12,986 nucleotides of DNA from Candidatus Heimdallarchaeota archaeon (GCA_030614005.1 JAUWKS010000083.1:1-12986); one strand, 5' to 3'. Positions 3 through 12,986 are shown, counted from the stretch's first letter. A program made the numbers and translations. The notes: generated from the sequence alone by a model not told the origin.

Positions 3-794
3 TATCACGCATCTCCAGATAATAATCTTCTAACTATCGAAGGTCAGAAAACAATAGGTCTAGAAATTGTCTTGCAGAAAGACACCATAGATAGTATAAT
101 TGTGCCAAGAGGTTCTGGATCACTAATATATTCCATTTTTCGAGGTTTTGAAGATGCAATTACCTCAGGATGGATTAAAGAATTCCCAAAGATTTACGCT
201 GTTTCATTAGAAAAAACAAAAGTAGCTCATTTAGCAGAATCATTAGAGATTACAAAGGTATTTCTTCTTGAAGAAGTGAAAAAGATAATTAAAAGAACAA
301 ACGGAAATGAAATAGAGATCGACGCTGAGTCTATGTTAGATGAAGCTATAATTTTAGCCAAAAATGAAGGACTATTTATTGAACCAGCATCTGCATCAGT
401 ATTAGTTGCTGCTAAAAATCTCATCCAAGAAGATCTGATAGATTCAAAATCTAGTGTTGCAATCTTGTCCGGTTCTGGATTAAGTACACTCAATGTTTAC
501 GCTGCTAGGTTAAGAGGAAAGAAGAAAGTTGTTTGGGGATTATCAGAAAGCTCAACTACAAAGTTTGAAATTCTCAATCTTATAGCTGGTAAAAAGGCTG
601 ATTATGGTTATTCAATCTGGATTTCTTTGGGAAAGAACCAATCTCTCCAATCAATCTATCAACATCTAGCAGAATTAGAAGAAAAGGGTTTGATTGTTCC
701 TAGTGAGAAAGAAGTTAAAAGAAAACACTATGAATTATCAAAAAAAGGTCTAGAAACTTTGGATAATATGCGAAATTTGATAGACTATCTATGA
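3..794 (+). CDS. 5'-truncated threonine synthase-like PLP fold type II protein with C-terminal PadR-family winged helix-turn-helix domain (putative one-component regulator)
   Basis: Frame is open from position 3 (YHASPDNNLLTIEGQKTIGLEIVLQKD...), so the track start at 72 is not the real start. ThrC-like motifs: IEGQKTIGLEI, IIVPRGSGSL, EGLFIEPASA, ILSGSGL. From nt 561 a PadR-like pattern: FEILNLI...YGYSIW...SLQSIYQHLAELEEKGLI...KRKHYELSKKG. Confidence 0.8.
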   Translation, partial: YHASPDNNLLTIEGQKTIGLEIVLQKDTIDSIIVPRGSGSLIYSIFRGFEDAITSGWIKEFPKIYAVSLEKTKVAHLAESLEITKVFLLEEVKKIIKRTNGNEIEIDAESMLDEAIILAKNEGLFIEPASASVLVAAKNLIQEDLIDSKSSVAILSGSGLSTLNVYAARLRGKKKVVWGLSESSTTKFEILNLIAGKKADYGYSIWISLGKNQSLQSIYQHLAELEEKGLIVPSEKEVKRKHYELSKKGLETLDNMRNLIDYL

Positions 795-804
795 TTTAGA
801 AATT

Positions 805-819
805 AAAAAAGAAAAAAAA
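805..819 (-). terminator. Oligo-T tract, probable archaeal intrinsic terminator for the 843..1211 gene
   Basis: Minus strand reads TTTTTTTTCTTTTTT about 23 nt after the stop codon, in the gap between two convergent genes. Confidence 0.5.
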
Positions 820-842
820 TAATTGGATAATTTGTTTTACAG

Positions 843-1211
843 TTAGCAATTTCCATCTTGTAGCTGAAGTTGTTCTTGAGTTCCATCTTGTTCACAAATA
901 CAAGTACAATTACAGGTTCCATCTTGAAGTTGATCTCTAATACGATCTCTTTCTCTTATCTGATCACCATCTCCAGGGGGGATACAGGTGCCATTACCGT
1001 TATTTGTTTCAGGAGGAACCATTGTACTATTGTAATTATTTTCATTTGGATCTTCACATGTACCATCTTGATACTGGTCTCGATCTCTATCGAAATCTCT
1101 TACAATTACTGTTTCATCAGCATATCCAATCATTGAAAGCTGTGTAGCTAAAACTAGTAGTGCTAGAAGACTTATACCAGTTAGTAATTTTTTATTTTTC
1201 ATAAGCTTCAA
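843..1211 (-). CDS. Small secreted acidic, Cys-containing low-complexity repeat protein of unknown function
   Basis: Basic N-terminus, hydrophobic stretch and GYA|D cleavage-like site (signal peptide, aa 1-31). GAGGT SD-like sequence at 1214-1218. Start is TTG 1211 or ATG 1202. Mature part is rich in D/Q/N/E/R, with 7 Cys and 3 N-X-S/T sequons. Confidence 0.75.
   Translation of the reverse strand: MKLMKNKKLLTGISLLALLVLATQLSMIGYADETVIVRDFDRDRDQYQDGTCEDPNENNYNSTMVPPETNNGNGTCIPPGDGDQIRERDRIRDQLQDGTCNCTCICEQDGTQEQLQLQDGNC
846..1100 (-). repeat. Intragenic imperfect repeats encoding (R/D)n-Q-x-QDG(T/N)C units
   Basis: CAAGATGG (Gln-Asp-Gly; CCATCTTG on +) occurs four times. Protein repeats: RDRDQYQDGTC, RIRDQLQDGTC, EQDGTQ, QLQLQDGNC, plus NGNGTC. 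Confidence 0.7.
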
Positions 1212-1344
1212 TTACCTCTTTTTTCAGATATATGAATAGATTGTCCTTTAAAATATTAAAGTAGGAAATAAATTGTCTCGTAAAACGGAAACTTTGATAG
1301 AGAAATTATTCATTCATCTTCTTTGCATTGCTTCAGATATCCAC

Positions 1345-1381
1345 CTAAAAGGTTTTATAGGTTTATACAAGTTGTAACTTG
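1345..1381 (+). promoter_or_regulatory. Candidate BRE/TATA promoter of the ECF operon followed by inverted repeat CAAGTT-GT-AACTTG (candidate operator)
   Basis: CTAAAAGG-TTTTATAG (1345-1360), a second TTTATA (1362-1367), then a 6-bp-arm inverted repeat at 1368-1381. GGTGA SD 4 nt before the GTG at 1405. Confidence 0.5.
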
Positions 1382-1404
1382 AATATATTTCTGTTGGTGA
1401 GAAT

Positions 1405-2241
1405 GTGAGTACAAATGAAGATAGCCTTAGTCAAGAAACAAATCTATCTGATCAAGATTATTTATTAAGAAATAAAATTCTAAAAGAAGTCTCTTCTATA
1501 CGTGGGATTGCGTTAATTGTATCTTTTACAGCACTGGTATTCTTATCTACATCAATTTTCTTCATTTATATTCCTGCTTCGAATGGATTCTTTAACATAG
1601 GAGAAGCTTTTGTTTATTTAGCTGCATTAATAGGTGGTCCTATAACTGGTGCAATTGCAGGTGGATTAGGCGCTTCAATGGCCGATTTAGCTTTAGGATT
1701 TGGTCATTTTGCTCCAGCAACAGCAATACTGAAAGCACTCGAAGGTTTTGTAGTTGGACTTTTATTCCATTACAGCAGAAGAGTTTATGGTTGGTTAAAA
1801 TATGTATTTATTGGAATAATATGCTCATTCCTAATTGGTTTTTCTGCATTTTTAACTACTCAAACATTTAATATTGGTCTTTCATTTTATGGCGCTGGAG
1901 AATTTTCTGTTAACATTCCAGGGTATGTTTTTCTGATTTTTTCTATTATTCTCACGATTATAATTATTCTAGTGCTTCTCCTACTCAAAGAAAAAGGTGA
2001 GATGGCACTTTCTTGTAGTCTAGGTGGGATCATTATTGTTATAGGCTATTATTTATATGAAATTTACATTCTCAGCTATGATCCAACTTTAGTAGCTCTT
2101 GAAATTCCCTTCAATATTGCACAAGTAATATTTGGTGCGGCAATAGCTATACCTATTGTATCCTATTTGAGAGAACTAGGTGTAATCCATTCGGATATTA
2201 TTGAAGACAAAGATATAGCAGAGGAAAAAGTACAAAAATAG
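1405..2241 (+). CDS. ECF transporter substrate-specific S component (COG4720-like; PdxU/HmpT-like), with internal hydrophobic insertion
   Basis: Motif IPASNGFFNIGEAFVYLAALIGGPITGAIAGGLGASMADL..G...FAPAT...KALEGFVVG and C-terminal EIPFNIAQVIFG are typical of ECF S components. Lies directly upstream of ECF ATPase and T genes. GTG start with GGTGA SD. Confidence 0.85.
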   Translation: MSTNEDSLSQETNLSDQDYLLRNKILKEVSSIRGIALIVSFTALVFLSTSIFFIYIPASNGFFNIGEAFVYLAALIGGPITGAIAGGLGASMADLALGFGHFAPATAILKALEGFVVGLLFHYSRRVYGWLKYVFIGIICSFLIGFSAFLTTQTFNIGLSFYGAGEFSVNIPGYVFLIFSIILTIIIILVLLLLKEKGEMALSCSLGGIIIVIGYYLYEIYILSYDPTLVALEIPFNIAQVIFGAAIAIPIVSYLRELGVIHSDIIEDKDIAEEKVQK

Positions 2242-2286
2242 ATGTCAAATTAATTTGTTAATACTTACCAATTACTGAGGATTATA

Positions 2287-3927
2287 ATGCTCCGCATAAG
2301 GAATTTATCAGTCAAATATCAATCAGATAAAAGATATGCTCTTAATTCTGTAAATATTAACGCAGAAGCTGGTGAGTTCATTGTAATTGCTGGTCCCAGT
2401 GGAAGTGGTAAAAGCACTCTAGCAAATGTAATTATGAGCTTGATACCTAATTTCATAAAAGCAGATATTAATGGAATAATCGAGTTTAACGATGAATCTA
2501 TTTTTAGTTTGGACAGAAAAGAATTGATTAAATTATTAGGATATGTACCTCAATATCCTAGTGATTTCACTACATCTTTATTAGTTGAAGAAGAGATAGC
2601 GTTTGTTTTAGAAAATCTTGCAATTGAAGCTAATGAAATTAATAAAAGGCTTGATTCTATTCTTGATCTATTAAAGATAAAACATCTGAAAAAACGATTA
2701 ATTACTGAATTAAGCTCTGGAGAATTACAGAGAGTAGCTTTGGCTGTTGCAATTGTAACAGAAGCCCCTTTGATAATACTCGATGAACCTATTGCAAGAA
2801 TTGATTCAAAATCTGAAGTCATGTTAACTGAATTATTAAGAGATATTGCAGACAAAGGTCATTTAGTTATAGCTTTTGAACACCGACTAGATTACATATT
2901 GCAAAAAGCTGATAGACTCATCATATTAGATGAAGGTAAAATAATTTCAGATGACCTACCAAAGAAAACGGTTAATTTGTTGAAGAATATTGATCCTCCA
3001 GAAATATCTACACTTGAATGTTCATCAAAAGAACAAATACTACTAATTGAGGAAGCAGTTGAGAAATGCAGAGCTCTTTTTACAAACTTATCTGAAAGAC
3101 AATACAATCTTAACGACCAGAGGTTTGCAAATAATGAGAATGATGTTTCGGTTAGATTGGATAACATTAGCTTTCGATATAACTCCAAAACATCTATGGT
3201 TCTGAAAGACATAGATCTATCTTTGTATGCTGGTCAATCTATTGGATTAATGGGTATTAATGGTAGTGGAAAATCTACTCTTTTGAAAGTCATTTCAGGC
3301 ATTAATAAAACAGCAAGTGGTGAGATTTATCTTAATGATTCAAGAGTTAAAAGCATAAGGAAAAGTAAAAATCATGTGATATTAGTTCCTGAAAATGCTA
3401 AACTGTTTTTGATAGGTCCAACTCCTTTCCGTGATTTATCTCGAATTATTAAAGAACCAAAAACAATTCACTCATTGTATAAGGAAACCGCATTAACTCC
3501 CCTTATGAATAAGAAACTCTATCATTTAAGTGAAGGAGAAAGAAGGTTGTTTGCTATTGTAAATGCTTTCCAATTCTCTGATGAAATTATCATAATTGAC
3601 GAACCAACCATTGGTTTAGATAAATGGGGGAGAAAGATTCTTTCTAATCTAATTAGAAGTGCTACAGCTAAAAATAAGACAGTAATAATAGCTTCTAATG
3701 ATCCTAGGATTTTTGTTGATCTTGATAGATTAATTGTTATTCAAGATGGTAACATAAAGCTAGACGGAAACCCAAGAAAAGTTCTTTATGAACTAGAAAA
3801 TAAAACTGACTTAATTCCAAATCAAATTGTTTGTTTCATCCAAATGATGGAAGAACAATTCCAATCAAAATTACCTCATTTCGTAAATACGAATGAAGTA
3901 AATGAATTTCTAAGGAGTGTTAAATAG
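2287..3927 (+). CDS. ecfA: ECF transporter ATPase, fused tandem A-A' nucleotide-binding domains
   Basis: Two Walker A motifs (GPSGSGKS, GINGSGKS), two signature-like motifs (LSSGE, LSEGE) and two Walker B/D-loops (IILDEP, IIIDEP). GAGG SD. Stop abuts the ecfT start. Confidence 0.9.
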   Translation: MLRIRNLSVKYQSDKRYALNSVNINAEAGEFIVIAGPSGSGKSTLANVIMSLIPNFIKADINGIIEFNDESIFSLDRKELIKLLGYVPQYPSDFTTSLLVEEEIAFVLENLAIEANEINKRLDSILDLLKIKHLKKRLITELSSGELQRVALAVAIVTEAPLIILDEPIARIDSKSEVMLTELLRDIADKGHLVIAFEHRLDYILQKADRLIILDEGKIISDDLPKKTVNLLKNIDPPEISTLECSSKEQILLIEEAVEKCRALFTNLSERQYNLNDQRFANNENDVSVRLDNISFRYNSKTSMVLKDIDLSLYAGQSIGLMGINGSGKSTLLKVISGINKTASGEIYLNDSRVKSIRKSKNHVILVPENAKLFLIGPTPFRDLSRIIKEPKTIHSLYKETALTPLMNKKLYHLSEGERRLFAIVNAFQFSDEIIIIDEPTIGLDKWGRKILSNLIRSATAKNKTVIIASNDPRIFVDLDRLIVIQDGNIKLDGNPRKVLYELENKTDLIPNQIVCFIQMMEEQFQSKLPHFVNTNEVNEFLRSVK

Positions 3928-4653
3928 ATGTCTTTTATGTTGAGAAGAATATATGACGGATTTCTTTTTAAACCAGACAGGTTTCATATCCATCCTTTGC
4001 TTGGGTTAACAATTATTCTACTACAATTTGGTTTTCTAATACCCAATATAAATTGGTCTCTTGCCCTTCTCCTATCATTTGTCATTCTTGAGAATATAAT
4101 ATTTAGAAATATTAGAGGATCACTAAGCATTCTATGGTCACTCCTTCCTGTTATTATTATTCTCGGTGGTTTAACTTTTCTTTTTGGAGGATGGTTACTC
4201 TGTTTTCGAGTACTATCTAGATTCTTTATTGGTGCAATAGGTTTTTCCTTTTTCTTTACCTCAACTAACCCATCAGATTTAACCAGATCTTTAGAAAAAC
4301 TGTACTTAGGTTCAAAGGTAGCTTTGATACCTTCCTTAGCTCTTGTAATAATACCTCGTATTGCTAAAGATTCTGAAGATACATTCAACACTTTACGTTT
4401 AAGAGGTGAGATTCAAGGAGGTTTTTACCGTTGGTTACCAAAAACATTAGCTATACTCATTGCTTCGGTTATCTATAGATCCGAATTCTTAGCTCAATCA
4501 CTTTATTTCAGAGGATTTGGTATTCAAAAAAGAACTCATTACAGAAAAATAAAGATGACATGGATGGATGTAAGTAGATTGGTCATTTGGGTAACCTTCC
4601 TTACTTTGTTTATTACTTTTAATTATTATGGGACTCTTAATTTCTTTGTTTGA
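3928..4653 (+). CDS. ecfT: ECF transporter transmembrane T component (CbiQ/EcfT family)
   Basis: Hydrophobic protein with TNPSDLTRSLEKL and two X-R-G coupling motifs (LRG, FRG) in the C-terminal half. Abuts ecfA (TAG ATG). Confidence 0.85.
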   Translation: MSFMLRRIYDGFLFKPDRFHIHPLLGLTIILLQFGFLIPNINWSLALLLSFVILENIIFRNIRGSLSILWSLLPVIIILGGLTFLFGGWLLCFRVLSRFFIGAIGFSFFFTSTNPSDLTRSLEKLYLGSKVALIPSLALVIIPRIAKDSEDTFNTLRLRGEIQGGFYRWLPKTLAILIASVIYRSEFLAQSLYFRGFGIQKRTHYRKIKMTWMDVSRLVIWVTFLTLFITFNYYGTLNFFV

Positions 4654-6065: not shown

Positions 6066-6084
6066 AATATAAAAATGTTTAATC
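6066..6084 (-). promoter_or_regulatory. Candidate TATA box for a leaderless MFS transcript
   Basis: Minus strand GATTAAACA-TTTTTATATT. TTTATA at 6073-6068 ends 25 nt before the TTG at 6043. No SD is visible. Confidence 0.35.
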
Positions 6085-6543
6085 ATTTATGAAAAAAGCT
6101 GCTACTTCCTCAACTGCTTTTAGAATCTCTTCAGAAACTTCACCCATGAACGTTAAATCCTTTACTTGGGCTCCGATAAGCTGAAATTTTTTACCTTTCA
6201 CTTCAATAATGTTTTTTATTTGCTCATAAGGGATAGTATGAGTTGATATTTGTGTTATTTTTGTATCAAAATCGTTTTTTACGATGATTTCGCCTGGTTT
6301 ACCATGGAAATCTACAGCATCAATGAGAAAAACATGCTGTACTTGCTTATTTTCAATCAAATCGAATAGAAAAACAGATAGGTCGTTATCTAGCTCAGAA
6401 AAAACCTTTTCGGGGTATTTTTCTTTAAGTTTTTCACCTACTAATATACCAAAAGAATCATCAGCTCTATCGCTATTTCCAAGACAAATAAAAGCGTATT
6501 TTTCAATTTCTGAAGAAGAAAAAAAAGGGAGGGATAGAGGCAA
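6079..6543 (-). CDS. Hydrogenase maturation endopeptidase (HycI/HybD, peptidase A31 family)
   Basis: CLGNSDRADDSFGILVGEKL, VFLIDAVDFHGKPGEI and STHTIP motifs. Directly follows the large subunit. GGTGA SD 8 nt before the TTG. Confidence 0.9.
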   Translation of the reverse strand: MPLSLPFFSSSEIEKYAFICLGNSDRADDSFGILVGEKLKEKYPEKVFSELDNDLSVFLFDLIENKQVQHVFLIDAVDFHGKPGEIIVKNDFDTKITQISTHTIPYEQIKNIIEVKGKKFQLIGAQVKDLTFMGEVSEEILKAVEEVAAFFIND

Positions 6544-7830
6544 TTACTCTTTCACCAATTTAACCATATGACAGCTGCATGAGATGCATGGGTCATAAGC
6601 TCTAGCAATCATTTCCAAATGAAGTTCAGTATCAGGATTGTCTTCTGCTAATAATTTCTCTGCAGCCACCCAAATGTATTTTTCAATATCATCTAAGAAT
6701 TGAGCTGTAGGTGTAATAATATCTGCATTGACAATTTTTCCATCTTTGATTTCATATGTATGATATAAAGTACCTCTTGGTGCTTCTACTGCAGCGGTTG
6801 CTGTACCATCTAATACCTCAGGAATGACCATTTCAGGATCGGGTAAAGCTTTGATTTTTTCGATGAGAATTGGTATTTGTTCAAAAGCCCAGAGTGCTTC
6901 AATTGCCTGACATAAGTTATTATATATAGGATTTGACTTCCAGCTTTCATTGAAATATTTATCATACTTCTCTTTTGCTTCACCTGTTAATCTATCACCA
7001 ATTAAAGCAAGTCTTGCTAAAGCACTAACCGAGAAAGGTTTGTCTTGATATTTTGATCGTTTAGCATAACTATGAGGAACAACTCTTTCATTTGTCATTT
7101 TCTTGTATTCTTCTACTGGATATTCCTCACCTGTAGAAATAAGGATTGTATCTCCTTCAAAACCAAATTTACCATCAGCTGGATTACAGCACATGAAAGT
7201 AGTATCTCTAACACCATATTCTGGTATTGGTAATGTTGCCATAAGATCAATAATGGCTGATACCCAAGATTGATATTCTGCTGCGTTTTCAAGGAATTTG
7301 TCTAATTCTTCATTTGTTGGTATCCGTCCAAATCCACCAATTTGAGGATTCTCTCCGTGTATTTTTCTTCCCATAAGAAGTTGCATCAATTCTGTACCGT
7401 ATTTTTTCATTACAACTGCTTGAACCACAGTTTCTTTGTGAGTTGCTAGTAATGCAATAGCAGAAGGTTGCTTGAAGAAATCAGGTAAAGCTAGATAATA
7501 AACATGCAAAATGTGTGATTCTACATATTCAGCAAGATGCATAAGTTCTCTAAGCAGTTTAACCTTCTCAGGAACCTTTACTTTAAGGGCTTTTTCAATC
7601 GCTTTAATTGAAACATTTCTATGAGAAACTGTACAAATAGCACAGATTCGAGAGACTAAAGAAAGAGTTTCTGTGTATGTCTTCCCTCTAACAAGAGCTT
7701 CAATCATACGTGGTCCTTCAAAGATATCAACTAAGACTTTATCCACTTTACCATCTTTGGTAAAGACTTGAATTCCTCCGTCACCTTCTACTCGGGAAAT
7801 AACATCAACACTAATTGTTTTTTCAGCCAT
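6544..7830 (-). CDS. hydA: Group 3b [NiFe] hydrogenase (sulfhydrogenase) large/alpha subunit
   Basis: SRVEG, L1 RICAICTVSH, EAPRG, L2 RAYDPCISCSCH plus a 7-residue cleavable tail. ATG at 7830 is preferred over TTG 7836 because GGTGA (7841-7837) sits 6 nt upstream. BGDA gene order. Confidence 0.93.
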   Translation of the reverse strand: MAEKTISVDVISRVEGDGGIQVFTKDGKVDKVLVDIFEGPRMIEALVRGKTYTETLSLVSRICAICTVSHRNVSIKAIEKALKVKVPEKVKLLRELMHLAEYVESHILHVYYLALPDFFKQPSAIALLATHKETVVQAVVMKKYGTELMQLLMGRKIHGENPQIGGFGRIPTNEELDKFLENAAEYQSWVSAIIDLMATLPIPEYGVRDTTFMCCNPADGKFGFEGDTILISTGEEYPVEEYKKMTNERVVPHSYAKRSKYQDKPFSVSALARLALIGDRLTGEAKEKYDKYFNESWKSNPIYNNLCQAIEALWAFEQIPILIEKIKALPDPEMVIPEVLDGTATAAVEAPRGTLYHTYEIKDGKIVNADIITPTAQFLDDIEKYIWVAAEKLLAEDNPDTELHLEMIARAYDPCISCSCHMVKLVKE

Positions 7831-7832
7831 TT

Positions 7833-8624
7833 TCAATCACCTTTTAACGCTTGTTCGACTTTATTGCCGCCAAACAACTTCAATTTTCTAATTACTTCTT
7901 CTTCTGATAGACCAATTTCCTTTAATTTATCAATCATGGAAGGATAATTTGCACCTTCGTATGTACCAAAACAGCCTATACAGGAAATATCAATGCTGGG
8001 ACAGGTAGCGTTACAACCTGCAGCTGTTACTGGTCCTAAACAGTATTTTCCATGAAGTAAGAAACAATCATTTCCTTCATATTTACATTCAACACAAACT
8101 GGCATTGGATACTTTTGAGGTAATAAACCACTGATCAATTTTGTATAAATTGGAACAAAGTTTTCAGCAGAAATAGGACAGCCTGGAATCATGATATCGA
8201 CATCTATGTACTCACTGATTGGTTGAGCAGGTCTGGGTTGTCCTACAAGATCTAAAAATTCGGGAACCTCACCACTCTTACCATAGACATATTCCATTCT
8301 TTCTTTGAATGTTTCTACATCTTCACCAAGATATTGAATTCCACCATAGCAAGCGCATGTTCCAAGTGCAACAACAACGTCAGCCATCTCACGTATTTCT
8401 TTGAGTTCTTTTAGTTGCCTTTCAGTATTAATACTTCCTTCAACAAGTGCAATATCAACTTTTGGAACTTCTTGATGAGATTGAGCCATATGGAAAAATT
8501 TGATATCAGCACTTGTAAAGAAATCAATAGTACTATCTTCCATATGAAGAATAGCTAATTGGTCTCCTGCACATCCAGAAAAACCAAAAATACCAACGAC
8601 GGGTTTCTTTTCTCTTTGCCACAT
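7833..8624 (-). CDS. hydD: Group 3b [NiFe] hydrogenase small/delta subunit (Fe-S)
   Basis: SGCAGDQL, VEGSI, ALGTCACYGG, PGCP, PVCVEC...C...CLGPVTAAGCNATCP...CIGCFG. GGAG SD. Located between hydG and hydA. Confidence 0.92.
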   Translation of the reverse strand: MWQREKKPVVGIFGFSGCAGDQLAILHMEDSTIDFFTSADIKFFHMAQSHQEVPKVDIALVEGSINTERQLKELKEIREMADVVVALGTCACYGGIQYLGEDVETFKERMEYVYGKSGEVPEFLDLVGQPRPAQPISEYIDVDIMIPGCPISAENFVPIYTKLISGLLPQKYPMPVCVECKYEGNDCFLLHGKYCLGPVTAAGCNATCPSIDISCIGCFGTYEGANYPSMIDKLKEIGLSEEEVIRKLKLFGGNKVEQALKGD

Positions 8625-9485
8625 TTAGATCAACTCCTTGATGTGTTGAACATCATAATACGTGAAAACTGGTCCTTCTAAGCAAGTATATCTTCCTCCA
8701 ACTGCACAATGTCCACAGTGTCCCTGACCGCATTTCATTCGTCTTTCAAGTGTCATTAAAATCTGATCTTTTGGAATGTTAAGTTTTAACAATTCTTGAA
8801 TAACAAATTTATACATTATTGGAGGGCCGCAAATTATTGCGGTTGTATTCTCACTGTCTATTAGTTCTCCTAGTTTTGGGATTAATTGTGTAACGAAACC
8901 AACATTATAGGGCCATTCACCAGTATCATCTTCATCAACTGCTAGATGAGTATCAATAATCTGTCTTTGATTCATTGCGATAAAATCTCTCTTGTAAAGC
9001 ATATCCTTCGGACTTCTTGCTCCATTTAAGAAGAAAACCTTATTGTATTCTTCTCTTCTATCTTCTATATAGAGTAAAACAGATCGTAATGGTACTGCGC
9101 CTAATCCTCCTGAGACGATTATAAGATCTCTACCTCTCAGGTCTTCCATTTCAAAACCATCTCCATATGGACCTCTTATGTCAATTGTATCTCCTTTTTT
9201 GAGTTTGAAAAGAGCTTCTGTAAAAGATCCAACTTTTCGAATACCGAATTCTATGAAATCTCTTCTTGTTGGAGTTGAAGATAATGAGAATGTGGCTTCA
9301 CCTACTCCTGGGAGGGAAAAGATAACAAATTGTCCTGGTCTATATTGGAAATCTTTGTTCATAGTAATATCTTTACATCTTAACTTGAAGTATCTTGTAT
9401 CGTCAGTCAAATCTCGAATTGCTAAAATTTCAGCTGGTTGAGTCTTGTATGTACTGATTTCTTCTTTATCTTTTGATGCTGTCAT
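8625..9485 (-). CDS. hydG: Group 3b hydrogenase gamma subunit (FAD/NAD(P)-binding, [2Fe-2S])
   Basis: RPGQF, GEATFSLSS, IRGPYGDGF, SGGLGAVPLRS, GARSPKD, ICGPPIM, ERRMKCGQGHCGHC...TCLEGPVF. GGAGG SD. ATGA overlap with hydB. Confidence 0.93.
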   Translation of the reverse strand: MTASKDKEEISTYKTQPAEILAIRDLTDDTRYFKLRCKDITMNKDFQYRPGQFVIFSLPGVGEATFSLSSTPTRRDFIEFGIRKVGSFTEALFKLKKGDTIDIRGPYGDGFEMEDLRGRDLIIVSGGLGAVPLRSVLLYIEDRREEYNKVFFLNGARSPKDMLYKRDFIAMNQRQIIDTHLAVDEDDTGEWPYNVGFVTQLIPKLGELIDSENTTAIICGPPIMYKFVIQELLKLNIPKDQILMTLERRMKCGQGHCGHCAVGGRYTCLEGPVFTYYDVQHIKELI

Positions 9486-10528
9486 TGGTCACAAACCTCC
9501 TGTGTTTCGCAAACTTCTTCAAAGAGTGCATTGGAAACAGTTATTACATTTATGTCAACCGGACAGTAGGCTATACACCGACCACATCCAACACAGCTTG
9601 GTTGTCCCCATCTGCCAATGTATTCTTTCAATTTGTGTGTATAGTATAATTTCAATCTTGCAGTTCGATCAGGTCTAAAATCATGATTACCAGCTACCAT
9701 TGAATAATAAGGTAGAGTGCAACTGTCCAACATCCTTTCTCTAATTCCTTCTTCTGCATTCATCATTATTTTATCATCTACATGGAAACAGTTGCATGTT
9801 GGACATACCAAACTACATGTTCCACAAGACAGGCATTTTTCCCCGAATTGTTCCCAAACGTCACTATCATAGTTCAAATGTATTATATCTGCTAGATACT
9901 TATATGAGGGAATTGAGGTCGTGAACATACTTGATCTCTCTTGTTGCCATCTAACATATTCTTGAATCTCTTCTTCAGAAACATTTTCTTCAAGCAAATT
10001 CTCTGCTTCAATAGCGATACCTAGACCTTTGTCTGACCCTACCCATAGTAGGTAGAAGTCATCCAATTCTGTTAAAAATAGATCAAATCCATCTTCAACC
10101 ATATCTGTACCTGTAGATTGACAGACGCATTTATCATCTGGTAAACAAGAATGTCCGATAATTATTAGATTTTCACGTCTTTTAGCATAATATGGATCTT
10201 TGATATTTCCCAAGAACAATCTGTCCAATATCTTAATCGCATGAATATCACATGGATGAACTCCCATTACTATTTGTGGTTCATCATCTGGAAGAACTTC
10301 TGTTTGTCCAAATTTTACGAATCGTAAAGTTGAATATTTAGCAGGAGTAATAAACTTTTTCGGACTAATGATCGTTCTTTGATAGTCAAAATCTAACTCC
10401 GAAAAATCTTTAATTTCCTCAAAGGAATATTTCTCTTTTTGTTTAACTGGTCCAAAAAGCTTCCCCTTACTTTTTATTAGTTCTACGAACTCTGGAAACT
10501 TCTCTTTAGACATTTTATACGTCTTCAT
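9482..10528 (-). CDS. hydB: Group 3b hydrogenase beta subunit (4Fe-4S dicluster; AsrA/HydB family)
   Basis: GVHPCDIHAI...D, CLSCGTCSLVCPTCNCF and CVGCGRCIAYCPVDI ferredoxin motifs. First gene of the BGDA operon. Confidence 0.92.
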   Translation of the reverse strand: MKTYKMSKEKFPEFVELIKSKGKLFGPVKQKEKYSFEEIKDFSELDFDYQRTIISPKKFITPAKYSTLRFVKFGQTEVLPDDEPQIVMGVHPCDIHAIKILDRLFLGNIKDPYYAKRRENLIIIGHSCLPDDKCVCQSTGTDMVEDGFDLFLTELDDFYLLWVGSDKGLGIAIEAENLLEENVSEEEIQEYVRWQQERSSMFTTSIPSYKYLADIIHLNYDSDVWEQFGEKCLSCGTCSLVCPTCNCFHVDDKIMMNAEEGIRERMLDSCTLPYYSMVAGNHDFRPDRTARLKLYYTHKLKEYIGRWGQPSCVGCGRCIAYCPVDINVITVSNALFEEVCETQEVCDQ

Positions 10529-10545
10529 GTCAAATAATTTTTTTG

Positions 10546-10560
10546 TAGTATGTTTATAAG
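10546..10560 (-). promoter_or_regulatory. Candidate TATA-containing promoter of hydBGDA (probably leaderless mRNA)
   Basis: Minus strand CTTATAAACATACTA. TTATAAA ends 25 nt before the ATG at 10528. No SD in between. Confidence 0.5.
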
Positions 10561-10587
10561 GTAATCTAAATCGACATCTTAATTCAC

Positions 10588-10601
10588 AACTAAATTTAGT
10601 T
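10588..10601. promoter_or_regulatory. Perfect 14-bp palindrome AACTAAATTTAGTT, candidate transcription-factor site
   Basis: Reads identically on both strands. Lies about 28 bp upstream of the candidate hydB TATA box. Confidence 0.35.
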
Positions 10602-10766
10602 CAAATAATATCAATATAACTTTGCTAAAACGATGCCAAAACTCAATAAATTTTAAGTTTAGAGTTCACTGATAGATATCTTCTCTTGTGCATATTTTTA
10701 GCACATTAATTTAAGGAAATGAATGATATGCGAATTAATTGTTTAATTAGCTATTTTGTTTAATAG

Positions 10767-10791
10767 TAAGAAAAACTTATAACACATACTA
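10767..10791 (+). promoter_or_regulatory. Candidate BRE-TATA promoter of mvhGA
   Basis: TAAGAAAAA (purine-rich, BRE-like) directly followed by CTTATAACACATACTA, nearly identical to the hydB promoter motif on the opposite strand. Confidence 0.5.
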
Positions 10792-10948
10792 AATCTATTT
10801 TATTAATATAACATCTGCATAAACCTGCTTGAAAAGGCATCAATAACACTTTATGACACAATTCAGCGTTGAGTCATAGCCCTACACTTCTGAAGCTACT
10901 TTGTTACTTCACTAATATCTACTATATCTATTCCTACAAGGTGAATAA

Positions 10949-11959
10949 ATGAATATAGAGGAAATTGAAGAGGAAAATATAACTAATAATAATAAATTAA
11001 AATTAGCTTTTTATTGGGCTGCTAGCTGCGGAGGCTGTGAGATAGCAGTTTTAGACATAAATGAAAAAATATTAGATGTTGTGGCTATAGCTGATATTCT
11101 TTTCTGGCCAGTGGCAATTGACACTAAGTATAAAGATGTTGAAGAAATGGTGGATAAACATATTGATGTTTGTTTCTTCAATGGTTCAATAAGGACTTCA
11201 GAACAAGAACATTTAGCTCATCTTCTTAGAAAGAAATCTAAAACAATGGTAGCATTTGGCGCATGTGCAGTTAATGGGGGAATTCCTGGTTTAGCTAATT
11301 TAGCAAGCAGAGAAGAAATATTCAACGTTTCGTATCTAGATAATCCCTCAACTTCTAATCCTCAAAAAACTTTACCAAAAACATCAGTTGAAGTTAAAGA
11401 AGGAACGCTTACTCTTCCCGAATTTTATGATGAAGTTAAGAGTCTTAATCAAGTGATTGATGTTGATTACTACTTGCCTGGATGTCCACCTCATCCTGAT
11501 ATGATCATGACCGCAATAGGAGCAATTGCAGAAAATAAACTTCCTGAGAAAGGTTCTGTTTTAGGACCACTAAAGTCAGTCTGTGATGAGTGTAAATTTG
11601 AAAAAACAGAAAAGAAAATTGATTCAATTAAACGGATATATGAACTTGATTTTATCGAAGACAAATGTCTTCTAGAACAAGGAATTATATGTTTAGGTCC
11701 AGCTACGAGAGGTGGTTGTTATGCTCAATGTCTAGATGCATTTATGCCTTGCACTGGTTGTGGAGGACCAGCTCCAAATTCTATTGATCAGGGCGCAAGT
11801 ATGATGTCAGCATTAGCATCCATCCTTGGATTAGAAGGAGAGGAAGAGATGAAAGAAGAGGAAGTAGAGAAACTGATTGAACAAATAGTAGACCCAGTCG
11901 GCACTTTCTACAAATACAGTTTACCTACAGCAATAATTAACAGGAAAGTGCAAAAATGA
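10949..11959 (+). CDS. mvhG: Group 3c (F420-non-reducing/methyl-viologen-reducing) [NiFe] hydrogenase small subunit
   Basis: KLAFYWAASCGGCEIA, FFNGSIR, AFGACAVNGGIPGL, YYLPGCPP, VCDEC, CLLEQGIICLGPATRGGC...C...MPCTGCGGP. AGGTGA SD 4 nt before the ATG. Confidence 0.9.
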   Translation: MNIEEIEEENITNNNKLKLAFYWAASCGGCEIAVLDINEKILDVVAIADILFWPVAIDTKYKDVEEMVDKHIDVCFFNGSIRTSEQEHLAHLLRKKSKTMVAFGACAVNGGIPGLANLASREEIFNVSYLDNPSTSNPQKTLPKTSVEVKEGTLTLPEFYDEVKSLNQVIDVDYYLPGCPPHPDMIMTAIGAIAENKLPEKGSVLGPLKSVCDECKFEKTEKKIDSIKRIYELDFIEDKCLLEQGIICLGPATRGGCYAQCLDAFMPCTGCGGPAPNSIDQGASMMSALASILGLEGEEEMKEEEVEKLIEQIVDPVGTFYKYSLPTAIINRKVQK

Positions 11960-12986
11960 CAACAATAACAATAAATCCAATTACACGATTAGAGGGCCAT
12001 GGAAAAATAATTATCTTCCTCAATCCTGAGGGAGATGTTGATAATGTTTATCTTCAAATACCAGAATTGAGAGGTTTTGAAAGATTTGCTCAAGGGAGAA
12101 GAGCTGAGGATATGCCTCAAATTACTTCTAGAATTTGTGGTGTATGCCCTGTTGCACATCATTTTGCATCAGCAAAAGCATTGGATAGAGCATTCAATGT
12201 AGACCCCCCAGTTGTCGCTAAGAAGCTCAGAGAACTTATGTATAGTGGTTATTTTATCTATGACCACATCCTTCATTTCTATTATCTAGGGGGACCTGAT
12301 TTTATTGTGGGTCCAGATGCACCAGCTGCTAAAAGAAATATTTTAGGTGTAATAGAAAAAGCTGGATTAGAAATAGGAAAAGAAGTAATTAAACACAGAG
12401 CGTATGGTCAAAAAATCACTGCAATATTAGGGGGTAAAGCTACTCATCCCGTTTGTGGACTCCCTGGTGGTGTTTCTAAACCTCTTTCAGATGAGGAAGT
12501 AAATGATATCAAAACAATGGTTACATCTTGCATTGACTTTGCTCAATTCACGCTAAAGATTTTTGATGATATTGTTCTTAAAAATGAAGACTATGTGAAC
12601 CTTATATTAAGTGATCCTTACACATTGAAAACGTATAACATGGGTCTTGTGGATGAAAACAACAAAGTCAATTTCTATGATGGACTCATTAGAGTTACTG
12701 ATACTAAAGGTAAAGAATTCCTCAAATTTGATGTAAATGACTATTTTCAACATATAGATGAGCATGTTGAGGAGTGGAGTTATATTAAATTTCCATATCT
12801 GAAAAAGATTGGTTGGAAAGGTTTTGTTGATGGTCAAGAAAGCGGCATTTATCGAGTAGGACCACTTGGCAGATTAAATGCAGCAGATGGGATGGCAACA
12901 CCTTTAGCAGATGCAGAATACAAAAGAATGTATAAAACTTTAGGAGGAAAACCTATCAACTCTACATTAGCTTTTCATTGGGCAAG
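11956..12986 (+). CDS. mvhA: Group 3c [NiFe] hydrogenase large subunit, 3'-truncated by window end (not in ORF track)
   Basis: ATG overlaps the mvhG stop (ATGA). Manual translation is open to the end: MTTITINPITRLEGHGKI...PELRGFERFAQGR...ITSRICGVCPVAHH (L1, nt 12130-12159)...HFYYLGGPDFIVGP...GGKATHPVCGLPGGVSK...YRVGPLGRLN...TLAFHWA. Confidence 0.93.
   Translation, partial: MTTITINPITRLEGHGKIIIFLNPEGDVDNVYLQIPELRGFERFAQGRRAEDMPQITSRICGVCPVAHHFASAKALDRAFNVDPPVVAKKLRELMYSGYFIYDHILHFYYLGGPDFIVGPDAPAAKRNILGVIEKAGLEIGKEVIKHRAYGQKITAILGGKATHPVCGLPGGVSKPLSDEEVNDIKTMVTSCIDFAQFTLKIFDDIVLKNEDYVNLILSDPYTLKTYNMGLVDENNKVNFYDGLIRVTDTKGKEFLKFDVNDYFQHIDEHVEEWSYIKFPYLKKIGWKGFVDGQESGIYRVGPLGRLNAADGMATPLADAEYKRMYKTLGGKPINSTLAFHWA

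Follow-up and report, generated by a model that had tools for sequence, protein, structure and literature searches.

A putative vitamin B6 homeostasis module with a threonine synthase-derived regulator in a Heimdall-type Asgard archaeon

The DNA analysed here, referred to as the window, is the entire 12,986-nt contig C27 of a Candidatus Heimdallarchaeota archaeon (GCA_030614005.1, JAUWKS010000083.1:1-12986), taken from a 3.6-Mb metagenome-assembled genome (MAG) that is 90% complete. Its first third probably constitutes a vitamin B6 homeostasis module of a Heimdall-type Asgard archaeon, composed of a regulator with the fold of threonine synthase (ThrC), a palindromic operator and a PdxU2-like importer of the energy-coupling factor (ECF) class. 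According to the mechanism that we propose, the regulator would be a one-component transcription factor, a dimer of which would most likely bind the 22-bp palindrome at 1364-1385; since the palindrome follows a TATA-like box and precedes the start of the operon, the bound regulator would block initiation of transcription of the genes for the S, fused A-A' and T components. From the content of the regulon, the effector is most likely a B6 vitamer, probably pyridoxal 5'-phosphate (PLP), which would be held non-covalently in the former active site and act as co-repressor, so that uptake would cease at times of abundant B6. With pdxS and pdxT missing, the ECF transporter would be the B6 supply of the organism. 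The features concerned are as follows (aa, amino acids; BRE, transcription factor B recognition element).

3-794, plus strand: regulator gene, 3' part; open frame truncated by the contig start; Pfam PALP and PadR
570-761, plus strand: winged helix-turn-helix (PadR/HTH_45-like), DNA-binding domain of the regulator; PF03551 at residues 190-253, PF14947 at residues 205-261
843-1211, minus strand: small secreted Cys/Asp-rich open reading frame (ORF), 122 aa, between the regulator gene and the ECF operon; no family assigned
1348-1362, plus strand: putative BRE/TATA element AAAAGGTTTTATAGG of the ECF operon promoter, read from sequence, with its function inferred
1364-1385, no strand: candidate operator, 22-bp palindrome; repeat search and conservation in relatives
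1405-2241, plus strand: ECF S component, 278 aa, PdxU2/HmpT-like; PF07155, 75.5 bits (cut-off 26.7)
2287-3927, plus strand: fused ECF A-A' ATPase, 546 aa; two ABC_tran domains
3928-4653, plus strand: ECF T component, 241 aa; PF02361 (CbiQ), 35.7 bits (cut-off 25)

An original prediction, made from the window sequence, had described a fusion gene about 600 bp upstream of a complete S-A/A'-T ECF operon, with a single unrelated gene in between, and all these elements were recovered: the fusion gene ends 610 nt before the S gene, and the intervening gene is the small secreted Cys-rich ORF on the minus strand. The S and A-A' genes are separated by 45 nt, and the T start directly abuts the A-A' stop codon (gap 0 nt). 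PF07155, two ABC_tran domains and PF02361 thus occur in consecutive genes (1405-4653), as in ECF transporters of group I; the best NCBIfam models for the A-A' protein, ECF_ATPase_1 and ECF_ATPase_2, scored 252 and 242 bits, both under their cut-offs.

By its sequence, the regulator is a pseudoenzyme derived from threonine synthase, in which the Schiff-base lysine is replaced by arginine. Full-length orthologues (447 aa) consist of an N-terminal zinc ribbon, a threonine synthase fold and a C-terminal PadR-type winged helix, and the window copy comprises residues 185-447 (263 residues), the 5' 552 nt of the gene being lost at the contig end. This copy matched PALP with E 9.6e-20, PadR (PF03551) with 28.3 bits, which is marginal to the cut-off of 27, and the NCBIfam model PRK05638 over model positions 185-441 of 442, with 148 bits (cut-off 421); the PadR family is also precomputed for many orthologues. 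The window protein shares 94% identity with residues 185-447 of P0136, its closest orthologue. At the Schiff-base position the orthologues read NPTGSFRDR, compared to NPTGSFKDR in ThrC, and in alignment A1 all 11 proteins fused to the winged helix carry Arg there, while three canonical ThrC carry Lys. The lysine of NPTGSFKDR, by which a threonine synthase is recognized, is lacking in P0136 and in all close orthologues, the window copy being cut before the motif. Nine of the 11 fused proteins also have ASTGS for ASTGN (GN is kept by the most divergent two, P0219 and P0220), and the phosphate loop GSGSL is present in all 11 (as RGSGSL or RGSGTL in the nine ASTGS proteins); the three canonical ThrC retain the residues of the enzyme.

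The loss of the lysine extends far beyond these proteins. Searching 1.8 billion representatives with a profile, and adding the earlier matches, yielded 266 homologues (P0124-P0389), among which Lys is absent from 163 of the 165 scorable members fused to a helix-turn-helix (HTH) domain and present in 61 of the 67 unfused ones; in the HTH-fused homologues its place is taken by R (106), I (20), L (17), V (6) and others. The two fused clusters that retain it are P0248 (Lokiarchaeota, NPTNSFKDR) and P0254 (cluster named Bathyarchaeota, NPTSSFKDR), and judging from these motifs they could be either enzymes that are still active and carry a DNA-binding domain or intermediate stages of evolution. In a 39-sequence family alignment (A2), Q400, Y403 and G433 of the winged helix are invariant. 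The AlphaFold model of the regulator (mean predicted local distance difference test score, pLDDT, 86.7) retrieved ThrC and other fold-type II enzymes in a structure search, the best fold match being Thermus thermophilus ThrC 1V7C (template modelling score, TM, 0.80). Named members of the family come from Heimdall-, Loki-, Thor-, Hod-, Odin-, Baldr- and Njord-archaea, and their database labels are mostly 'threonine synthase' or 'PLP-dependent enzyme'. The claim of a PLP-fold regulator was therefore borne out as far as the fold and the HTH fusion are concerned; it needs correction in that the domain is not a normal PLP enzyme, since the Schiff-base lysine is lost, and for the same reason PLP binding by the regulator is presumed.

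The candidate operator is the inverted repeat that had been claimed for the ECF promoter; it was confirmed at 1364-1385, at a position that is conserved in many relatives. Its arms, at 1364-1373 (TATACAAGTT) and 1376-1385 (AACTTGAATA), are complementary at 9 of 10 positions and are separated by a 2-nt spacer, GT; the palindrome follows the TATA-like AAAAGGTTTTATAGG, and its 3' end lies 19 nt ahead of the GTG start of the S gene. Shuffling the 193-nt spacer gave an equal or better repeat in 104 of 5000 trials, which makes it by itself only modestly unlikely; the degenerate 22-mer TATWCAAGTTNNAACTTGWATA, however, has a single occurrence in the 3.6-Mb assembly, the next best site having 3 mismatches. 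The consensus of the palindrome is TATWCAAGTT-NN-AACTTGWATA. In four genomes of genus g7 (G020, G038, G024 and G040) a perfect or near-perfect palindrome stands directly after the AAAAAGTTATAAT box of the S gene, the remainder of the spacer is diverged, and changes in one arm are compensated in the other.

The palindrome is also found before S genes that lie far from the regulator gene. The S promoters of G012, G030, G016 and G026 carry it, often as two sites 18-20 nt apart, and in these genomes the regulator gene is located from 22 kb to more than 150 kb away or on another contig. It recurs in other families (G044, with 0 mismatches, G089, G119, G123 and G166), and Promethearchaeum syntrophicum has two tandem degenerate sites immediately ahead of the S start. 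Upstream of S it was absent in 11 genomes of genus g4, all of which are devoid of the regulator. The 25 distinct sites give a clean half-site matrix, T-A-T-W-C-A-A-G-T-T, and in every case the order is a TATA-like box, one or two sites, a Shine-Dalgarno sequence and the start codon; such a promoter layout would suit an archaeal repressor that blocks polymerase recruitment.

A second line of evidence comes from the genes of B6 synthesis. In eight genomes of genus g1 and in G011 a member of the regulator family (482-487 aa, NPTGSFLDR) is encoded divergently from pdxS, and in the spacer between the two (134 nt in G009) the palindrome, which in most genomes shows 0 mismatches, lies some 20 nt ahead of pdxS. 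The g7 genome G034, which shares the flanking genes of the window, has pdxS-pdxT in place of the ECF operon, behind two palindromes, and the arrangement in G187 is similar. The motif also stands before pdxS genes unlinked to the regulator in G075 (3 mismatches) and G108 (2 mismatches); the unlinked pdxS promoter of G207 has degenerate sites only, with 4-5 mismatches. It was not found in the pdxS promoters of genera g5 and g10, which lack the regulator. As far as these promoters tell, the presence of the palindrome tracks the regulator and not the neighbourhood, because it is present where the regulator is unlinked and absent from the S and pdxS promoters of regulator-less genomes.

Scans of the whole genomes of G000, G016, G026, G012, G038 and G034 for a wider regulon stayed at background outside the S and pdxS promoters; a match that recurs in G016 and G026 departs from the full motif at 6 positions. 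Autoregulation was rejected for the tandem loci of g7, where no site precedes the regulator gene, and in L. ossiferum the regulator gene has neither a palindrome site nor an S gene in the 6 kb around it. In families f12 and f19 the palindromes in the spacers by the regulator gene and pdxS have a TAGG core instead of CAAG (L132 in G047, 221-242; L133 in G078, 1260-1299), which may represent a co-evolved operator variant. In G084 (L131, G084:C242, 932-2488) tandem palindromes (1 mismatch) precede what looks like a single operon of an S-like gene and pdxS, where importer and synthase apparently coexist under shared control.

The distribution of S and pdxS was established in three samples, i.e., 41 relatives (G000-G040), genus g7 and 200 Asgard genomes, and in the first two the genes exclude each other completely.

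41 relatives: S only, 20; pdxS only, 15; both, 0; neither, 6
Genus g7: S only, 10; pdxS only, 4; both, 0; neither, 2

Among the 200 Asgard genomes the regulator is present in 96, pdxS in 32 and an S-like gene in 150, and S-like genes occur in 142 of the 168 genomes without pdxS versus 8 of the 32 with it. A hand count of coordinates placed the regulator gene within about 3 kb of S in 53 of the 96 fusion-bearing genomes and of pdxS in 5, so that adjacency to one or the other holds in at least 58 of the 96; tandem, divergent and convergent orientations were all seen. In the closed genome of P. syntrophicum the regulator gene is followed, after one intervening gene, by a solitary S gene, and pdxS was not found. 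The co-localisation proposed as a check on the original prediction is thus conserved, and its suggestion that the regulator feeds back on B6 uptake gains support from comparative genomics, namely from gene linkage, the palindrome shared with pdxS and the exclusivity of S and pdxS. With ThiC found in 0 of the 41 relatives, RibH in only 5 of the 41 (without complementarity with S) and pdxS in 32 of the 200 genomes, these Asgard archaea look broadly auxotrophic for vitamins.

What, then, would the transporter carry? The resemblance of the S component to PdxU/HmpT proteins, as claimed in the original prediction, was upheld by profile searches of the PDB. The S protein itself had a sole match, 4HZU_S (E 2e-6), and so had the profile of 39 S-family sequences (E 3.7e-15), which matched none of the RibU, ThiT, BioY, FolT and PanT chains even at E<=10. 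Chain S of 4HZU was first named HmpT, is now called PdxU2 and binds pyridoxamine (PMC4860826); PdxU and PdxU2 (PF07155) are among the only known B6 importers, the transporters listed being PdxU, PdxU2 and P5PA (PMC9997740, PMC5320631). E67, Y215, N237 and Q240 of the S component align with Glu41, Tyr120, Asn140 and Gln143 of PdxU2 and are invariant in alignment A3, and the position of PdxU2 His84 is an invariant lysine (Lys110) in the Asgard S family. The named residues of the pyridoxamine pocket are common to several S components (PMC4860826), and for this reason four identities out of five are not proof of specificity. Two extra transmembrane helices and a loop are inserted between SH4 and SH5 (residues ~122-199, window 1768-2001), as deduced from hydropathy and alignment. 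The insertion is apparently missing from many of the S-like genes (190-230 aa) that are more distant within the Asgard archaea.

Several observations weigh against the proposed module. The PdxK/PdxY kinase (TIGR00687) was found in 0 of the 41 relatives, and PF08543, which covers ThiD-type kinases, gave mostly sub-threshold partial matches and none in G000 or in 9 of the 10 genomes of family f2; G041, G161 and G172 have only weak PfkB-like matches to it. No recognisable pyridoxal kinase was detected in the 41 relatives, G161, G172 or P. syntrophicum. The lack of a PdxK/PdxY/ThiD-type kinase leaves a gap in the salvage of unphosphorylated vitamers, which would mean that the import is of PLP itself or that a kinase has escaped recognition. 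At the scale of the phylum the exclusion of S and pdxS is incomplete, given the 8 of 32 pdxS-bearing genomes that also have an S-like gene, and the genome counts are descriptive and overstate the statistical support, because relatives do not count as independent samples. The window copy is devoid of the N-terminal half, so that the Lys-to-Arg change is taken from orthologues, of which the nearest shows 94% identity. Finally, judging from the residues present, PLP binding is not assured for a protein without the Schiff-base lysine and the O3'-binding asparagine (ASTGS for ASTGN).

The last of these points opens the way to another reading of what is sensed. The palindrome would still control B6 genes, and the dead ThrC pocket would respond to an amino-acid metabolite, i.e., O-phosphohomoserine, threonine or an adduct of PLP and an amino acid, in which case the supply of PLP would be tuned to amino-acid metabolism. 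The sensor does descend from threonine synthase, with its pocket for O-phosphohomoserine (fold match 1V7C), and both the PLP-contacting lysine and the asparagine of ASTGN are altered. We nevertheless hold this to be unlikely, as the detected regulon contains only B6 genes (S or pdxS/pdxT) with no other standout target in the motif scans, the usual logic of a regulon is end-product feedback, as in the case of bacterial PdxR (PMC5320631), and the Gly/Ser residues of the phosphate loop and the NPTGSF.DR frame are still conserved. Even less probable is that the ECF transporter imports a substrate other than B6, such as the thiamine precursor hydroxymethylpyrimidine (HMP), riboflavin or some other cofactor, and that its tie to pdxS goes no further than a common regulator or neighbourhood. 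Since S tracks the absence of pdxS perfectly in the 41 relatives, pdxS-pdxT substitutes for it in situ in G034 and the 4HZU protein binds pyridoxamine (PMC4860826), B6 is the better candidate, although PF07155 includes RibU, the 4HZU chain was originally named HmpT and no pyridoxal kinase was found. The lack of ThiC means that thiamine precursors are needed as well, yet ThiC is missing everywhere, hence also from the 21 genomes in which S is absent, and RibH and S occur together in G016.

It might also be asked whether the neighbourhood and the palindrome coincide by chance, with another factor acting on the palindrome and a fusion protein whose role is unrelated. Binding of the palindrome by the fusion protein is our inference, and the genes are unlinked in G016, G026, G030 and L. 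ossiferum; coincidence is all the same a slim prospect, given that adjacency spans many families and three orientations and holds in at least 58 of 96 genomes, and that the motif accompanies the fusion gene at both S and pdxS promoters. That the fusion protein is a working threonine synthase with an accessory DNA-binding domain is hardly credible, despite the label 'threonine synthase' on many members and the lysine kept by the rare fused clusters P0248 and P0254. The lysine is missing from 163 of the 165 fused members; the scores fall below every ThrC model cut-off, P0136 reaching 96.5 against 167.1 for TIGR00260 and 281.3 against 421 for NF004170/PRK05638; and a canonical ThrC of 402 aa is encoded elsewhere in the assembly, at C71. 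The reading of the stretch as a B6 homeostasis module is therefore preferred.

The nearest functional parallel to such a module is bacterial PdxR, of the MocR subfamily of GntR, which is likewise a one-component regulator with a PLP-enzyme-fold sensor fused to a winged helix (PMC5320631). PdxR controls pdxS/pdxT and genes of B6 salvage and uptake, e.g., pdxK-pdxU, through promoter repeats (PMC5320631). PdxR, however, is built of an N-terminal GntR winged helix-turn-helix and a fold-type I aminotransferase domain that keeps the PLP lysine, whereas in the archaeal protein a zinc ribbon is followed by a ThrC domain of fold type II that has lost the lysine, the PadR-type winged helix is at the C-terminus, and the predicted target is an archaeal TATA/BRE promoter. 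MocR/PdxR proteins are recognized by a GntR HTH together with a fold-type I domain, and Pfam gives PALP and PadR only; by this comparison the regulator is a functional analogue of MocR/PdxR and not a member. With PadR-family regulators it shares the PadR-type winged helix, the inverted repeat and, presumably, dimeric binding, but here the winged helix is C-terminal on a large enzyme-derived sensor and its score is barely over the cut-off. Besides the fold (TM 0.80 to T. thermophilus 1V7C), the likeness to ThrC includes 26-28% identity to the bacterial enzymes and a zinc ribbon that matches archaeal ThrC in A1, while the replacement of the catalytic lysine and the ASTGN asparagine and the added DNA-binding domain set it apart. 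The S component resembles Lactobacillus brevis PdxU2/HmpT (4HZU_S; PMC4860826) in belonging to PF07155 and in keeping four named pocket residues, and differs from that six-helix protein in its two extra helices, in Phe102 for Trp76 and Lys110 for His84, and in being encoded in an operon of its own (group I) whose ATPase is a fused A-A' protein.

Reviews of B6 regulators describe PdxR and PdxR2 only, both bacterial MocR proteins (PMC9997740, PMC5320631), and a 2025 preprint on Asgard pdxS calls regulation of the pathway poorly characterised (10.1101/2025.11.07.685452). Our literature search found no paper on an archaeal B6 control circuit or on a ThrC-winged helix regulator. We lean, if only somewhat, towards the broader view that the Asgard-wide family of Lys-less ThrC-fold proteins with a winged helix is the missing archaeal B6 regulator; PLP, bound non-covalently, would be its signal, and either pdxS/pdxT or a PdxU2-like ECF transporter would be repressed through the palindrome. 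A candidate regulator, operator and target are thereby named, and the function of a PdxR-type protein would be built from unrelated domains. The widespread label 'threonine synthase' is corrected for this family, and a likely B6 role is assigned to an abundant Asgard ECF S component. Because pdxS is present in 32 of 200 genomes only and a recognisable pyridoxal kinase was missing from the 41 relatives, G161, G172 and P. syntrophicum, most Asgard archaea would rely on the B6 of their partners, possibly imported as PLP; the data suggest that most of them, including the cultured P. syntrophicum, are B6 auxotrophs, which bears on cultivation and partner dependence.

The contig itself probably does not belong where it was binned. 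Over its whole length C27 is collinear with genomes of genus g7 (family f2), with nucleotide identities of 65-81%, its fusion and S proteins share 91-94% of their residues with the counterparts in G172 and G161, and the MAG's own genus, g1, carries the pdxS-type locus instead and matches C27 only at about 11956-12200 (in G002 to 12986). For these reasons C27 is probably mis-binned, or else it reflects a large recent transfer, and the use of G000 as a within-genus contrast to g1 was dropped.

As to the remainder of the window, the ORF at 843-1211, which is transcribed divergently from the ECF operon and had zero Pfam or NCBIfam matches, is unrelated and stands outside the module; counterparts occupy the same position in the g7 genomes G038, G024 and G034, the operon of the last being pdxS-pdxT. 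Riboswitch control was considered and set aside, since no Rfam family was found in the window at E<=1 except for a chance snoRNA match, and a scan for sigma-70 promoters and terminators, models that are uninformative for an archaeon, gave counts at or below the level of shuffled sequence. Downstream of the module, at 6079-12986, the window contains two [NiFe] hydrogenase gene clusters and a maturation protease, and the synteny of hydrogenase genes and B6 module is retained in g7 and partly in g6, where the regulator gene directly abuts the hydrogenase genes.

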